From Promethearchaeota archaeon (GTDB lineage Archaea; Asgardarchaeota; Lokiarchaeia; Sigyniarchaeales; SOKP01), in contig JAEOSU010000076.1 in the NCBI GenBank assembly GCA_016840165.1, positions 98,664 through 162,663 on the forward strand: a stretch of 64,000 bases of DNA, written 5' to 3'. The notes below the pieces were generated by a model. That model worked only from the letters and a program-made list of their open reading frames with translations. It did no database searches and was not told the DNA's origin. The translations under genes and the position numbers were made by a program. Shown here piece by piece: positions 1-6,595 of the stretch (the stretch's first letter is position 1; every line of letters starts with the position of its first letter).

Positions 1-361
1 GAATAAATAATGAAAAAATAAACTCATGAAGTTTTGGTATTTCTTCATATGAATCATCTGAATCAGCATAATCATCAATTAGAGGCATTGCTTCGAAATA
101 ATCATTTAAAAAAGCACTAGAAATTCCTTTATGTGGTTTTCTATTCAAAGGAATCTTCTTCTTTAAAATTAAATTATCGGGTTCTTTTTTAGATTCTATG
201 ATTGTATAGAGAGTAACACTAGGTAAAACAGCAACACTACTTATAATTAGGATTGAATTTAGAAGGATATGATCTATATTAAAGAAAATAAAGAGAAGAT
301 AGATTAAAATAAAGAATATATAGAGAATGATTGTACCAAATAATAGATGCTTTAGTTTCAT
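1..361 (-). CDS. Hypothetical membrane protein, runs off the window edge (MKLKHLLFGTIILYIFF...)
   Basis: Manual translation from ATG at 361: open to base 1, with two hydrophobic N-terminal segments then a polar domain. Absent from the ORF track because it has no stop in the window. Confidence 0.6.
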   Translation of the reverse strand, partial: MKLKHLLFGTIILYIFFILIYLLFIFFNIDHILLNSILIISSVAVLPSVTLYTIIESKKEPDNLILKKKIPLNRKPHKGISSAFLNDYFEAMPLIDDYADSDDSYEEIPKLHEFIFSLFI

Positions 362-1379: not shown

Positions 1380-1715
1380 ATGAGTTTTGATAATGATTTT
1401 GATGAGGAATTGGAACCATTAAAGTCTAAAACGCCTACAAGTAAAACACCTTCAGCAGGAAAGAAACTGACTCTATATTTTATGTCAACTATCGGTCCTG
1501 GTGAAAAGAAAGAAAAGTTAACCGTAAATGATGCTAATCAAGTCAGTGATATTAAAGAAACCTTAGGAAATTTATACGGTCTTGACCCTGATGAATTTCA
1601 TTTATCATCTGGTGGAGTTACAATGGATGAAAGTAATCAATTAAAAGATTATAACGTAAATGATGGAGACGACATTCTTTTAATTCCTGCGAGTACGGCG
1701 GGTAGACTTATATAA
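1380..1715 (+). CDS. Ubiquitin-like (beta-grasp) modifier with N-terminal tail and C-terminal ...IPASTAG-RLI
   Basis: Ub-like pattern (VSDIKETL...L...G..M...QLKDYNVNDGDDILLI); first gene before E1/E2/JAB; ATG 5 nt after AGTGA. Confidence 0.85.
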   Translation: MSFDNDFDEELEPLKSKTPTSKTPSAGKKLTLYFMSTIGPGEKKEKLTVNDANQVSDIKETLGNLYGLDPDEFHLSSGGVTMDESNQLKDYNVNDGDDILLIPASTAGRLI

Positions 1716-1769: not shown

Positions 1770-1791
1770 ATTAATAATTAAGGTGATAGGA

Positions 1792-3015
1792 TTGGAGAAA
1801 AATTCAGATTTTTTTGGTAAAGAACTGTCAGTGGAGGAACGAGACTTATATGACCGCCAATTTCGCCTTGAAGGTTGGTCACAAAAGGTAGTAAAAAATT
1901 CGAGAGTCCTAATAGCAGGTGTAGGAGGTTTAGGTTGTGAAACTGCTAAAAATTTAGCTATGTTAGGTGTGGGTCATATCGATCTTGTTGATTTAGATAT
2001 AATTGAACATTCTAATTTAAACCGACAAATACTTTTTACTGGTGCTCAAATAGGAGAATCCAAAGCGATTGTAGCTGCTAGAAAATTGAGGGAAGTAAAT
2101 CCAAATATAACTATAAAAGGGTATTCTACCTCTTTAGAACGATTAAATCCTGAAATTTATCAAGCCGTTGATATTGTGGTTGGTGGTCTTGATTCGATGA
2201 TTGCTCGTTTAAACTTAAATGCGCAGTGTATAAGATTTAGAAAACCTTTAGTTGATGGGGGCGTATCTGGTTATCATGGGCATATCTATACCGTGTTTCC
2301 TTATAAAAATGCCTGCTATGAGTGTAACCCATTACCTATTGGCGAAAGTGATGAAATGGCAGCTTGTACTGTAGTTGGAATTCCCCGGAAAAGAATTCAC
2401 TGTGTTTTTAAAGGGGATATGGCTTTTAGAGAAAAATTTGATAGAGATCCAAATCCAAAAGATATGAATGATATAAAATATATTCAAAAAGCGGCAAATG
2501 AATTAGTAAATAAACATAATTTCTTACCCGAATACACTGAAGATGATATTGTAAAAATTATTGATAGACATGATCCAGGATTAATTACAGTTAATGCCGT
2601 TATTTCTGCTTTACAGTCTCATGAGACTATAAAGATTATTCATTGGAAAAAAGGGCATAAAGGATTAGGAGCGCCCATACAGGATTATGTTATCTTTAAT
2701 GGTATTACCATGAAATTATATCATATTGAAAAAAAAAGAAACCCAGAATGTTCTCAATGTGGAAGAAATGCTCGACGTGTTATTATAAAAATGAAAGCAC
2801 AGTCACCTTGCATGAATATTATAAAAATTTTAAATCATCATGGGTATAACTTAGAGGAAAATTTTGAACCCATTATTACACTATTGGATTTCAATGATAT
2901 ACAAGTTATTGATTTAGAAAAGAATGCTAGAGAAAATGATTTACGTAATTTAGAATTTTTAATTGTAGCTGGGTTTGTTGGTGGAGAAATTTATGTAACA
3001 CTAAAATTAAAATGA
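1792..3015 (+). CDS. E1 ubiquitin-like activating enzyme (ThiF/UBA family)
   Basis: YDRQ, GVGGLG, SNLNRQ, CYEC/CSQC zinc pairs, catalytic-Cys motif ACTVVGIPRKRIHC; TTG start 5 nt after GGTGA. Confidence 0.92.
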   Translation: MEKNSDFFGKELSVEERDLYDRQFRLEGWSQKVVKNSRVLIAGVGGLGCETAKNLAMLGVGHIDLVDLDIIEHSNLNRQILFTGAQIGESKAIVAARKLREVNPNITIKGYSTSLERLNPEIYQAVDIVVGGLDSMIARLNLNAQCIRFRKPLVDGGVSGYHGHIYTVFPYKNACYECNPLPIGESDEMAACTVVGIPRKRIHCVFKGDMAFREKFDRDPNPKDMNDIKYIQKAANELVNKHNFLPEYTEDDIVKIIDRHDPGLITVNAVISALQSHETIKIIHWKKGHKGLGAPIQDYVIFNGITMKLYHIEKKRNPECSQCGRNARRVIIKMKAQSPCMNIIKILNHHGYNLEENFEPIITLLDFNDIQVIDLEKNARENDLRNLEFLIVAGFVGGEIYVTLKLK

Positions 3016-3101: not shown

Positions 3102-3629
3102 TTGAGTTTAAGAAGTAGTCGTATTTCTCGAGATTTTGCGGGTTTAAAAAAGATGCTTAAGAATGGAACCATGGTTCAATTAAAACCATTTAATCCAAAA
3201 AAAAAAAGTATTGATCATTTAGCTATTACTATCAGAGGTCCCAAAGGAACAGCTTATGCAGGGGGTCTTTTTAAATTAGAAATGAAATTCCCTGCTCAAT
3301 ATCCTAAGCAGCCTCCATTTGTGAGACTCCATACACCAATTTGGCATCCAAATTTTTGGCCTAAACCAAGTGAATATAAAGGACAAAGAAATATCTGTTT
3401 AGCATTAGTTGATCCTTCTTTAGTTGGTAAAAAAGGAGGTTGGAGTCCTTCGAAAACAGCAGTCACTATAGTGCAAGCAATAATTGCTATGTTAAATACA
3501 CGCGGAAAATATGTTAATCCAACAGATGTATTTAATAAAAAAGCAGCAATCGAAATGATAAAGGATCAAAAATTCTTCGAGAAAAAAGTTAAAAACCTAG
3601 TAAAGAAGTATGCAAAAGAAAAGTGGTGA
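3102..3629 (+). CDS. E2 ubiquitin-conjugating enzyme (UBC fold)
   Basis: GPKGTAYAGGLFKL, FPAQYPKQPP, HPN...ICL (catalytic Cys), WSP motifs. Confidence 0.93.
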   Translation: MSLRSSRISRDFAGLKKMLKNGTMVQLKPFNPKKKSIDHLAITIRGPKGTAYAGGLFKLEMKFPAQYPKQPPFVRLHTPIWHPNFWPKPSEYKGQRNICLALVDPSLVGKKGGWSPSKTAVTIVQAIIAMLNTRGKYVNPTDVFNKKAAIEMIKDQKFFEKKVKNLVKKYAKEKW

Positions 3630-3636
3630 AAATAAT

Positions 3637-4443
3637 ATGAAAAATGATGAAATTCCTGATGATCCAATTAGAGAAGCCATTAAACAAAAAATAAAAAACA
3701 AAATCAAAAAAGAATTACTTAAAGAAATATATTCGGAATTACAATTAGAAGAAGAAATTACAAACGAGATAACCACTGAAATAATTAGTGATCCTTTATT
3801 AGAGCATTCCGAGATCAATAAAGCTAATCTTGAACCGATTCCTTCAGAGATCGTAGAAACTTCTGCTAGTAATGGTAAATTTAAAGCACCTATAGCTATA
3901 AATGTAAAATCCATTCTAAAAATTGCCAGTCACGCATTAAAATATGCTCATTCAAAAATCCCAAGAGAAGAATGGGTTGAGGTTATTGGCTTACTTGCTG
4001 GAACATTTGATAAAATTCATAACGTTTTATATATTGAAGATGTTTATCCAATGGGACATGGTAATGCTGTGTATGCGGAAATTAAAGATTATAAAAATTA
4101 TGTAAGAGCTTTTAAAGATATCAAAAAAAGTAGATTGTTTATATGTGGCTGGTATCACTCTCATCCATCCTATGGATGCTTTATGTCTAGAGAAGATTTA
4201 GGTACCCAATCGCGGTATCAAACATTATGGGATAAAGCAATAGCACTTGTAATTGATCCTTATCAGATAAATGGAAAATCATTGGGTTTTGAAATTTATC
4301 GTGCGAATTTTAAAAAACGAGAGTGGTTTTCTGTACCTTTTGAGATTAATGGAAATTTAGATGTGGGAATGTTACCTGAAATTTTGGATTTTATGAACCC
4401 AATTATAGAGGGGAAGGCTGCTTATTTAGAATATGATGAATAA
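3637..4443 (+). CDS. MPN+/JAMM metalloprotease (Rpn11/CSN5-like)
   Basis: EVIGLL...GWYHSHPSYGCFMSRED...IDP, a complete JAMM motif; ATG 7 nt after GGTGA; ~85 aa N-terminal extension. Confidence 0.92.
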   Translation: MKNDEIPDDPIREAIKQKIKNKIKKELLKEIYSELQLEEEITNEITTEIISDPLLEHSEINKANLEPIPSEIVETSASNGKFKAPIAINVKSILKIASHALKYAHSKIPREEWVEVIGLLAGTFDKIHNVLYIEDVYPMGHGNAVYAEIKDYKNYVRAFKDIKKSRLFICGWYHSHPSYGCFMSREDLGTQSRYQTLWDKAIALVIDPYQINGKSLGFEIYRANFKKREWFSVPFEINGNLDVGMLPEILDFMNPIIEGKAAYLEYDE

Positions 4444-4463: not shown

Positions 4464-5603
4464 ATGGTAAAAAAGAAAAATTTGATAATCCTTCTTTTTG
4501 TCTTAATTGGTTTTGTCCATGGGTTGATCTCAATTTCATTAAATATTTTTCTAACTTGGGTATTTATCGGTTTGTGGATATTTTTCATAATAAAAATTTT
4601 CGAAAACATAAAACAACATCGCGAATTTAATTCACCTTATAATACGGCATTTTTTGTTATTCTTCCTTTATTTATTGGGATCTTTTATTCTATGTGGGGC
4701 TACTATACGAATTTATTTGGTGAAAATCTCTTTATGAACTCCAATATCTATTTTAGTTTATGGAGCTTAATTTTTGGATTTCCATTTGTTTTATATGGAT
4801 CTTATTCATTATATCGTTGCTTTAAAAAGTATAATGTGATCTATTTTGGGAGAAGAGCTGTAAAGGCTAAAGTGGTTGGATATCTACTATCATTCTCAAT
4901 AATTTTTGGTATTATTCTTTATTGGATAATTTTTTACTCTATTATTGAGTTTTTTAATTATTTATTAATTCCTTTACATTTCTCTTTAGATTTAAATCTT
5001 TTAATCATTTTTATATTGACTATTCTAATTCTTATTTTATTTGGATTTTTAAATCCTCAAAGACGATTATCTCCTTTAACTCGAGAATATATAGCACAGC
5101 GTACTCGAAGAATTAATGCTCTCACAAGACCTAGTATTCAAAATCAGAGAGTAAAGACAACTAACCGATCAACTTCTCCCTCAACTAGAACAGTGACCCG
5201 ATCAACTACTACTTCCTATAGATCCTCAAGGATCACTCCAAAATCTAAAAGCCATGCGAGGAGAACAACAAGAACCACTGAAACTAAAAAGACAAAAACT
5301 AATCTAAAAATTCGAAATATAAATGCTTATAAGCCAAAAGCGGCATTTCTGACAGAAGAAGATTTCAAATGCATTTTCTGTTTTAATTTGCCAAAATTTC
5401 CCGAAGATAAAGGTAGAGGGATCATTTTATGCCCTAATTGTAGATATCCTTCCCACGCAGATGAGTTTAAAGACTGGTTAAAAACTTCAAATTTATGTTC
5501 ACGTTGTAGCGCACCCATTCCCTCTAGCTTTAGAAGAAATCCAAGAATTATTAGTATAAAAAATTATATTTCTATCTATAAACAAATTTTAAAAAAAACA
5601 TAA
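4464..5603 (+). CDS. Polytopic membrane protein with C-terminal variant RING finger (candidate E3 ligase)
   Basis: About 6 hydrophobic helices, an S/T/R-rich linker, then C-x2-C-x16-C-x2-C-x4-H-x2-E-x3-W-x6-C-x2-C; last gene of the Ubl-E1-E2-JAB run. Confidence 0.75.
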   Translation: MVKKKNLIILLFVLIGFVHGLISISLNIFLTWVFIGLWIFFIIKIFENIKQHREFNSPYNTAFFVILPLFIGIFYSMWGYYTNLFGENLFMNSNIYFSLWSLIFGFPFVLYGSYSLYRCFKKYNVIYFGRRAVKAKVVGYLLSFSIIFGIILYWIIFYSIIEFFNYLLIPLHFSLDLNLLIIFILTILILILFGFLNPQRRLSPLTREYIAQRTRRINALTRPSIQNQRVKTTNRSTSPSTRTVTRSTTTSYRSSRITPKSKSHARRTTRTTETKKTKTNLKIRNINAYKPKAAFLTEEDFKCIFCFNLPKFPEDKGRGIILCPNCRYPSHADEFKDWLKTSNLCSRCSAPIPSSFRRNPRIISIKNYISIYKQILKKT

Positions 5604-5635: not shown

Positions 5636-6595
5636 TTATTTATTTGTTCCAATAATTCTTCTTAATTCTCCAACCGTAGTTTTTAATTCTGAATATACAT
5701 TATGGGGATGGATGGATTCATAACTTTCAATAGTGAATTTAATTTTAGACTGATCCTCCAAATTTGGAAAATCACTCAGGATGAATCTTTTTGCCATTTG
5801 TCTGACTACATCCTCAGAAAAAAGTGGATTTAGATGAGCTGTTCGAACTAGCCTTGCCTCTTCTGGTCTTTTTAGAACTGACTGCATTTTTCCCGACATT
5901 GAACCTTCTATGATATCAATTATATCTAAAACATCAATTTTATGATTGTTTAAATCTTTAATCTGCACAATAATAGTTCCTTTTGATCGCTGATTATGAG
6001 AACTAAAAGGTAAGATATTGAGGAGTTTCTTAATATCTTCTTCCCGCAGATTGATATCTCTTCTATTTTTAATAATTTCTTCAGCATACTCTTGGCTCAT
6101 TTCTTTTGCACAAGGGCAAACCGTCATACCAACGGCACTTGCCCCAATATAGTAGTTAAAATCAATCTCTCCTGATTCATCCTTACGGGCTTTTACAAAA
6201 GAACTTATATCATATGACTTTTGGATATTTCTTTGTTGTTCATCTTTAGTTTGAACGACTATTTTGCCTTCAAGTTTTACATAGACTTTTCTGGTATAAG
6301 GATGCTTTTTGAGAAGTTCTCGTGCAATTCTATCTCCTACCACTTCTACAGATGGTGTTGGTTTGAAAATTACCTCATTTATGATCTCTTCGATAGTTTC
6401 AGAGGTGCGAGACATATGAATCCCTCGTTGTTTGGCAGGAAGAGATATCAGTGCAGAGATCTTAGGATAAAAGGAGTAGCGCTTATTTTCTTGAATGATC
6501 TCGACTTTTTTTTCGACACCAACAATCCCAACTTTATCGATAGGAATATCGATTTTTGAGCCAGAATTCTGTAAATCTTTTTTAAAGTGGCTAAT
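5636..6595 (-). CDS. mptA: GTP cyclohydrolase MptA (FolE2 family); start extended to ATT at 6595
   Basis: GIHMSR, TVCPC, HNQR, ESIHPHN motifs. The frame is open 60 codons upstream of the track's ATG and includes KKDLQN...DKVGI. Confidence 0.88.
   Translation of the reverse strand: MSHFKKDLQNSGSKIDIPIDKVGIVGVEKKVEIIQENKRYSFYPKISALISLPAKQRGIHMSRTSETIEEIINEVIFKPTPSVEVVGDRIARELLKKHPYTRKVYVKLEGKIVVQTKDEQQRNIQKSYDISSFVKARKDESGEIDFNYYIGASAVGMTVCPCAKEMSQEYAEEIIKNRRDINLREEDIKKLLNILPFSSHNQRSKGTIIVQIKDLNNHKIDVLDIIDIIEGSMSGKMQSVLKRPEEARLVRTAHLNPLFSEDVVRQMAKRFILSDFPNLEDQSKIKFTIESYESIHPHNVYSELKTTVGELRRIIGTNK

Follow-up and report, generated by a model that had tools for sequence, protein, structure and literature searches.

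The DNA analysed here, referred to as the window, is a 64,000-nucleotide stretch of a Promethearchaeota archaeon genome (GenBank assembly GCA_016840165.1, contig JAEOSU010000076.1, forward-strand positions 98,664 to 162,663) with a G+C content of ~30%. It contains five consecutive plus-strand genes which, with assignments from Pfam searches of the window genes, encode a ubiquitin-family modifier (Ubl), an activating enzyme (E1), a conjugating enzyme (E2), a JAMM metalloprotease and, as the final gene of the operon, a 379-amino-acid protein that joins transmembrane (TM) helices to a C-terminal variant RING finger and is called TM-RING in the following (Table 1). The TM-RING gene starts 20 nt past the JAMM stop codon, and the operon lies on contig 58 of a 3.6 Mb host genome that is 99.7% complete. 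The operon E2 matches UBE2R, UBE2T, UBC13 and others in the PDB, and the H-x-H-x7-S-x2-D motif of the JAMM protein is intact in the translation. All 370 homologues of TM-RING are annotated as hypothetical proteins and carry no Pfam domain.

Table 1. Features of the Ubl operon, of TM-RING and of the gene convergent with it (positions are those of the window).
Feature	Position	Strand	Basis and remarks
Ubiquitin-family modifier	1380..1715	+	PF00240, 30 bits against a cut-off of 25.4; ends ...LLIPASTAG-RLI
E1-like activating enzyme, ThiF family	1783..3015	+	PF00899, E 1.2e-59
E2 (UBC fold), UQ_con	3102..3629	+	PF00179, E 9.8e-26; HPN...Cys99 active site
JAMM/MPN metalloprotease, Rpn11-like	3610..4443	+	JAB PF01398, E 2.3e-13
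TM-RING protein (P0001), 379 amino acids, final operon gene	4464..5603	+	open reading frame (ORF)
Six-TM domain, N-in/C-in	4479..5051	+	hydropathy; AlphaFold2 (AF2) model, pLDDT 72; Lys/Arg distribution
TM1	4479-4538		residues about 6-25 (hydropathy and AF2, as for TM2 to TM6)
TM2	4542-4601		residues about 27-46
TM3	4644-4703		residues about 61-80
TM4	4752-4808		residues about 97-115
TM5	4875-4943		residues about 138-160
TM6	4989-5051		residues about 176-196
Cytoplasmic loop 2-3, HREFNSP(H/Y)N motif	4602..4643	+	invariant or near-invariant in close homologues
Cytoplasmic loop 4-5 (SLYRCFKKYNVIYFG...), strongly basic	4809..4874	+	beta-hairpin predicted
Juxtamembrane helix LT-R-[DE]-YIAQRTRRIN-L, residues 204-221	5073..5126	+	conserved; model
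Low-complexity basic Ser/Thr/Arg/Lys tether, residues 223-288	5130..5327	+	composition
Variant RING finger C4-H-E-C2	5370..5507	+	C-x2-C-x16-C-x2-C-x4-H-x2-E-x10-C-x2-C
Glu334 codon (GAG), sixth metal-ligand position	5463..5465	+	opposite second His of RING-H2-type H-x2-H
Trp338, four residues past ligand 6, in central helix 332-341 (model)	5475..5477	+	invariant
C-terminal amphipathic helix packing on the RING, residues about 365-378	5556..5597	+	model helix 81-94; within RING/U-box alignments
MptA/FolE2-type GTP cyclohydrolase gene	5636-6415	-	convergent with the TM-RING gene

The order Ubl-E1-E2-JAMM-TM-RING, with all genes on the same strand, was found in 80 of 80 species-representative related loci as far as their contigs reach. 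In 14 loci of other Asgard families and distant classes, where TM-RING is 25-40% identical, the E2, JAMM and TM-RING genes are again adjacent, with Ubl and E1 upstream or, in two of these loci, slightly downstream. The co-oriented gene set of the Caldiarchaeum type (Ub-family modifier, E1, E2, RING and JAMM) is thus borne out by the synteny of these 80 + 14 loci, within the reach of their contigs. Matches to TM-RING were found in 201 of 400 Asgard genomes, among them 117 of the 134 genomes of its own family and 30 of 31 and 19 of 22 in two other families, mostly with one match per positive genome. A complete Asgard cluster also occurs on a contig deposited as 'Candidatus Nanopelagicaceae bacterium' (L014, DATKTW010000176.1), which is probably mis-binned. 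The MptA/FolE2 gene convergent with the TM-RING gene recurs in 62 of the 80 related loci, a kept synteny without an obvious functional link.

The predicted metal ligands of the finger are C303, C306, C323, C326, H331, C345 and C348, with E334 at the sixth position, D333 beside it and W338 following E334 after three residues. An earlier, sequence-only reading of the window had placed a RING-like C4-H-E-C2 motif at exactly this position, with Glu at the sixth ligand position and the E2-contacting Trp retained, and the alignments described below bear out all three points. We file the finger as a variant and not as a canonical RING because ligand 6 is Glu334 in place of Cys or His, leaving seven Cys/His ligands where a canonical RING has eight. 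An AF2 model of the finger built from 29 sequences (pLDDT 75) shows a beta-hairpin, a central helix from residue 332 and a C-terminal helix. The best Foldseek matches of this model were RING/U-box domains together with the RING-like domains of IFT-A and GATOR2, and re-alignment of the Foldseek-seeded matches with VIA gave Z scores of 5-5.8 with RING/U-box domains throughout the top 50. In an exhaustive VIA search of 48,161 PDB chains, which is independent of Foldseek, the top 50 were likewise all RING/U-box (Z 3.5-5.1, 47-78 aligned residues). The sequence-only reading had named a PHD fold as the alternative; in both structure searches the top 50 were free of PHD fingers and zinc ribbons. With ~70 residues, the domain can be expected to give no more than moderate Z scores, as it does, and it is the uniformity of the lists that constitutes the evidence; on the basis of the model, the finger is predicted to fold as a RING/U-box and not as a PHD domain.

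Relatives of the finger were sought with a profile search that covered 1.84 billion representative proteins and yielded only 118 clusters, mostly of 340-470 amino acids with a C-terminal finger and several TM helices. Short matches scored as having about zero TM helices (P0125, P0133, P0140 and others) were not counted as stand-alone soluble forms; they probably stem from short contigs on which the gene call lacks its N-terminal part. The weakest matches were soluble proteins of 126-203 amino acids with the pattern C-x2-C...C-P-x-C-x4-H-x2-H-x3-W...C-P-x-C, most of which exceed the Pfam cut-off for zf-RING_2. When the family was aligned with these soluble RING-H2-type proteins by hhalign (probability 99.1%, E 1.2e-18, 58 columns), Glu334 fell opposite the second His of H-x2-H. 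By these alignments, the finger is a true RING homologue. Glu334 is placed at metal-ligand position 6, because it lies opposite that second His, because Trp follows four residues on and because Cys stands there in a related finger at another locus. The latter (L056:1548-1799, +) is an 84-amino-acid soluble C4HC3 protein encoded just upstream of the Ubl gene, with the same spacing, Cys at ligand 6 and Trp at +4.

In an alignment of 121 close homologues (52-95% identity), all seven Cys/His ligands, Glu334, Ile304 and Trp338 are invariant (121 of 121). Across the wide family the Cys/His ligands and Trp338 are kept, and Glu334 is found in nearly all members, down to 17-25% overall identity. Among 94 loci the codon at this position is GAA in 79 and GAG in 14; Glu334 has therefore been kept through synonymous change. 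We take this pattern to reflect strong selection for a carboxylate, which would complete zinc site 1 with C303, C306 and H331, Glu334 either binding zinc directly or stabilising a three-ligand site as a U-box-like substitute. The neighbouring Asp333 was rejected as a general ligand, since N, S, T, H, G, L and other residues replace it in distant members while the Glu stays.

Hydropathy and the AF2 model agree on six TM helices, close to the ~6 that had been read from the sequence. The N-terminus, loop 2-3, loop 4-5 and the segment after TM6 contain 3, 2, 7 and 7 Lys and Arg residues respectively, and loops 1-2, 3-4 and 5-6 contain none. From this clean positive-inside pattern both ends of the protein, and therefore the finger, are predicted to face the cytoplasm, which answers the topology check proposed in the sequence-only reading; with a cytoplasmic C-terminus, the RING would therefore lie on the same side as E1, E2 and Ubl. 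Within the Lokiarchaeota-type clade the membrane domain is conserved as much as the RING and includes invariant polar motifs (HREFNSP-N, GENL, YFS-WS and SLYRCFKKY) that sit in two cytoplasmic loops and one outer loop. HREFNSP(H/Y)N and the other motifs are not kept in distant classes, and family-wide almost nothing of the TM domain is conserved.

No relative of the membrane domain emerged from the searches made with it: a Pfam scan of the TM part gave sub-threshold rows only, the TM profile had no relevant PDB sequence match, Foldseek of the TM model against the PDB gave a best E of 0.7, an exhaustive VIA search returned only generic helical bundles (all Z < 8), and in the ESM Atlas a shape search gave TM-scores all below 0.5 and a feature search no usable match. 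HRD1 was a weak Foldseek match (rank 19, E 3.5, TM-score 0.32, probability 0.10) that was absent from the top 50 of the exhaustive fold search and from the PDB sequence matches. Kinship of the membrane domain with Hrd1, derlins, transporters or membrane enzymes was dropped, as no fold or family match rose above noise. The missing match is no proof of a new fold.

Between the membrane domain and the finger, a linker of ~90 amino acids had been proposed. A low-complexity basic stretch is indeed present and measures 56-82 amino acids across the 121 homologues (medians: Ser/Thr 44%, Lys/Arg 25%, Asp/Glu 1%; 2-11 Lys per tether), but the first part of the supposed linker is the conserved helix of residues 204-221. 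An SSR-x-TP motif (residues about 254-259, window 5223-5240) is nearly invariant in the otherwise variable tether and could be a short linear motif or a proline-directed phosphosite; that the linker acts as a phosphoregulated tether is pure speculation.

The modifier of the operon ends in -LLIP(A/V/H/T)STAG at all loci examined and never in -GG (-SRAG in one second copy), and it has an N-terminal tail of ~30 amino acids with an acidic patch. Instead of the Gly-Gly modifier and small soluble RING of the Caldiarchaeum type, these loci therefore encode a -STAG modifier and a six-TM RING. Among 62 modifier orthologues, 41 stop directly after the Gly and the others add 1-4 residues (RLI in the window). 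This distribution fits processing by the JAMM enzyme with its intact motif.

Further Ubl genes were noted beside the operon. In distant-class loci, second copies lie at L087:9819-10761, L092:10280-12317 and L098:7234-7509; one of these is on the opposite strand directly after the TM-RING gene and has a long C-terminal extension past -STAG, and one terminates in -SRAG. In the host genome, two further ubiquitin-family ORFs lie just upstream of the window (G000:C58:98029-98466), one within a 270-amino-acid frame, and the ORF running off the 5' end of the window (2-361, -) has a hydrophobic N-terminus, which suggests extra Ubl paralogues beside the operon that are possibly membrane-anchored. Elsewhere in the genome there are three or four ordinary zf-RING_2 ORFs, a second E2 and other Ub-family ORFs; because these lie elsewhere, the operon is a distinct system with TM-RING as its only E3 (ubiquitin-type ligase) candidate.

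The residues through which a RING would contact E2 are in place: Ile304 directly follows ligand 1 and Trp338 stands four residues past ligand 6, the position of the E2-contacting Trp in RING-H2 domains. Co-folding of the RING with the operon E2 supported docking weakly, with a score of 0.41 against 0.01 for the best control; of 80 solved complexes 58 attain the co-folding mark, as do 2 of 110 mismatched pairs, but with a score of 0.60 or below only 7 of the 80 do so, along with both of the mismatches that pass. The partners had pLDDT values of 82 or more, and agreement between runs covered at least 5% of contacts. Because RING-E2 complexes have been solved, the pass may show likeness only. Within the E2 itself (residues 82-100, window 3345-3401), the HPN motif and the catalytic Cys99 are separated by 14 invariant residues, FWPKPSEYKGQRNI, a gap that is presumably longer than in most UBC enzymes.

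From context, fold, homology, conservation, topology and docking, TM-RING is probably a dedicated membrane-anchored RING-type E3 of an Asgard-wide five-gene Ubl system. Six TM helices anchor the protein in the cell membrane with its two ends in the cytoplasm, and the basic tether carries the RING. By homology, the RING would bind two zinc ions in a cross-brace, with site 2 formed by C323, C326, C345 and C348, and site 1 by C303, C306, H331 and the carboxylate of Glu334, which would stand in for the sixth Cys/His ligand. The operon E2 charged with Ubl would dock on the surface made up of Ile304, Trp338 and the last zinc knuckle (S346, R347), and the RING would promote transfer of Ubl to lysines of proteins in or near the membrane, perhaps also to those of its own tether. 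Ubl precursors with residues past -STAG would be trimmed by the JAMM enzyme, which would also reverse conjugation. A membrane E3 with unusual zinc ligation was also what the sequence-only reading had arrived at, and fold, homology, topology and context agree with it in silico; ligase activity and zinc ligation by Glu are what we infer from them.

Several observations weigh against this reading. No curated RING model is matched by TM-RING: Pfam searches with the whole protein and with the finger gave only sub-threshold rows, far below the cut-offs (Zn_ribbon_15, E 0.004-0.05; zf-RING_16, E 0.08-0.2), and the Z of the structure matches is only about 5. Position 334 is Ala in cluster P0150 and in locus L093 (L093:6353-7642, -), the only such cases; both read H-A-D-A-F, keep Asp333 and are otherwise intact proteins. 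Glu334 is therefore either not an obligatory ligand or replaceable, perhaps by the neighbouring Asp333, which may be a substitute ligand in these two 'HADA' variants. The linchpin, the residue after the last Cys, is usually Arg, Lys or Asn and here is Ser349; the residue after ligand 7 is Ser346 and not the Pro that is common in active RINGs (c-Cbl, RNF4, BIRC7). Among the nearest matches are RING-like domains, from the C-termini of IFT-A and GATOR2 subunits, with a mainly structural rather than catalytic role. Ser349, Ser346 and these structural look-alikes count against full activity.

The same observations bear on the possibility that the RING-like domain is a non-catalytic adaptor which tethers E2, Ubl, JAMM or another partner, or a module for assembly or dimerisation, perhaps with the tether lysines as the main Ubl acceptor so that the protein serves as a membrane mark or receptor. 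Besides the linchpin lacking Arg/Lys, the missing Pro and the structural character of IFT-A and GATOR2 among the top Foldseek matches, this would accord with the result of a PDB sequence search using the finger profile, in which the best match was the C-terminal zinc-binding domain of IFT144/WDR19 (E 0.05-0.3, not significant; 0.05 at best), with the 2-11 lysines that each tether offers as acceptors and with the weakness of the E2 co-folding support. Against it, the E2-contact Ile and Trp are invariant across the whole family, the nearest true homologues are RING-H2-type fingers, and the operon, at every examined locus of which the gene is kept, has no other E3 candidate. We consider an adaptor or acceptor role unlikely.

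It is more doubtful still that the membrane domain is the main functional unit, as a transporter, channel, sensor or membrane enzyme whose own abundance or activity the RING and Ubl system would mainly regulate by self-modification, which JAMM would reverse. The many invariant polar residues of the TM domain in the Lokiarchaeota-type clade go beyond what a passive anchor needs, but distant classes do not keep these motifs and have only the RING and the general layout in common with that clade, and no similarity to a transporter, channel or enzyme fold or family was found. Such a role would also be compatible with E3 activity and would merely narrow the substrate. As to a reading function, PHD fingers have a conserved Trp two residues before ligand 7. 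That the finger is a PHD-like or zinc-ribbon-like reader of peptide, lipid or nucleic acid, helped by the tether, is very improbable: the ml3-x2-ml4-x4-ml5-x2-ml6 spacing of its ligands 3 to 6 is quoted for PHD as well as RING-C2 (PMC5240574), the weak Pfam rows include zinc-ribbon families and the tether is strongly basic, yet position 343 is Asn and the Trp stands at ligand 6 +4 as in RING-H2, Pfam gave no PHD row even at E up to 5, the finger is strongly homologous to proteins that score as zf-RING_2, and both structure searches yielded RING/U-box domains alone in their top 50.

Taking TM-RING as a membrane-anchored E3, a wider proposal can be made, which we regard as a long shot: a second, membrane-directed Ubl pathway would exist across Asgard archaea, with a -STAG modifier and a polytopic RING whose Cys2-His-Glu site is possibly a labile metal, redox or pH switch, the TM-RING family would then be an archaeal precursor of membrane-embedded RING ligases, and membrane proteins would have been marked for extraction or sorting before the rise of eukaryotes. 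Membrane ubiquitylation by polytopic RING ligases, as in endoplasmic reticulum-associated degradation and endosomal sorting, is regarded as a eukaryotic trait, and in the archaeal ubiquitin operons known from earlier studies the RING proteins are small and soluble. Among Lokiarchaeota-type Ubl operons, the commonest terminates in a conserved six-TM RING protein, and the same arrangement recurs in several Asgard classes. Should TM-RING prove active as an E3, Ubl conjugation directed to membranes would be older than eukaryotes and open to testing with four small recombinant proteins. The surveys consulted on Asgard ubiquitin genes looked for E3s by the UFL1 signature alone (PMC9192718). We found no polytopic RING in archaeal Ubl operons, no Glu variant and no -STAG modifier in the literature, where a mention in a subscription paper or supplement is possible.

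Among known systems, the operon of Ca. Caldiarchaeum subterraneum, with Ub, E1, E2, a small RING (srfp) and Rpn11, gives a working cascade in vitro, and like operons are reported from Asgard archaea (PMC5654768). The same five roles are filled here in a compact archaeal operon, and the srfp RING is the presumed or proven E3 there. By description rather than by sequence comparison, srfp is set apart as small and soluble, whereas TM-RING spans the membrane six times and carries its finger on a long basic tether; it has Glu at ligand position 6, and the modifier of its operon ends in -STAG and not -GG. In Helarchaeia, an E1-E2-RING E3 cascade ubiquitinated the substrate UEV-Vps23 in vitro (bioRxiv 10.1101/2023.07.25.550441). 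Both are Asgard RING proteins encoded beside Ub, E1 and E2, and the Helarchaeia protein acts as an E3; it is soluble, ESCRT-linked and binds its substrate via an N-terminal loop, whereas TM-RING is polytopic and its operon has no ESCRT gene. The closest demonstrable homologues of the finger are the soluble prokaryotic RING-H2-type fingers (PF13639 zf-RING_2, PF14446 Prok-RING_1; P0224, P0227, P0239), which share the register C-x2-C...C-P-x-C-x4-H-x2-[ligand 6]-x3-W...C-x2-C but lack TM helices and differ in the His at ligand 6 and the Pro that follows ligand 7. One of them, P0227 (L099:3356-4820), lies outside any Ubl operon, directly after a 285-amino-acid ORF without Pfam domain and near pyrimidine-biosynthesis genes.

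The sequence-only reading had likened TM-RING to MARCH/Doa10 and to Hrd1. The layout stands, as Hrd1/SYVN1 and gp78/AMFR likewise combine a multi-pass domain, a cytoplasmic linker and a C-terminal RING; the likeness goes no further than layout because the membrane domain resembles neither protein and the ligand spacing is that of RING-C2/PHD and differs from both RING-CH and RING-H2 (PMC5240574). TM-RING has six TM helices where Hrd1 and gp78 have eight, and a C4-H-E-C2 finger with x2/x4 spacing where they have C3H2C3, and a relation between the membrane domains is not detectable. MARCH/Doa10 proteins are also membrane-bound and their RING-CH (RINGv) finger also has four Cys before the His, but that finger is N-terminal and has the spacing ml3-x1-ml4-x7-ml5 (PMC5240574), whereas the finger of TM-RING is C-terminal with x2 and x4 spacing and Glu at ligand 6, and is thus not of the RING-CH type. 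With IFT144/WDR19 of IFT-A and with GATOR2, which were among the top five Foldseek matches at scores that are not significant, the finger has in common C-P-x-C-[KR]-[FY]-P-A...C-x2-C; they stand at the end of large beta-propeller/solenoid proteins, and counterparts of His331 and Glu334 are absent from them, IFT144 having Ser and Gln instead.

The nearest precedents for an altered ligand are the modified plant RINGs, of which RING-D and RING-S/T accept Asp, Ser or Thr at ligand 5 or 6; the catalogue of modified RING types contains none with a Glu ligand (PMC5240574). RING-C2 has the same ml3-x2-ml4-x4-ml5-x2-ml6 spacing as TM-RING, where x10 follows between ligands 6 and 7. If formed as predicted, the Cys2-His-Glu site would be a natural case of a RING zinc site that tolerates or exploits a carboxylate, between RING and U-box. 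The modified plant RINGs are scattered eukaryotic paralogues, whereas Glu at ligand 6 defines the whole ancient archaeal TM-RING family.

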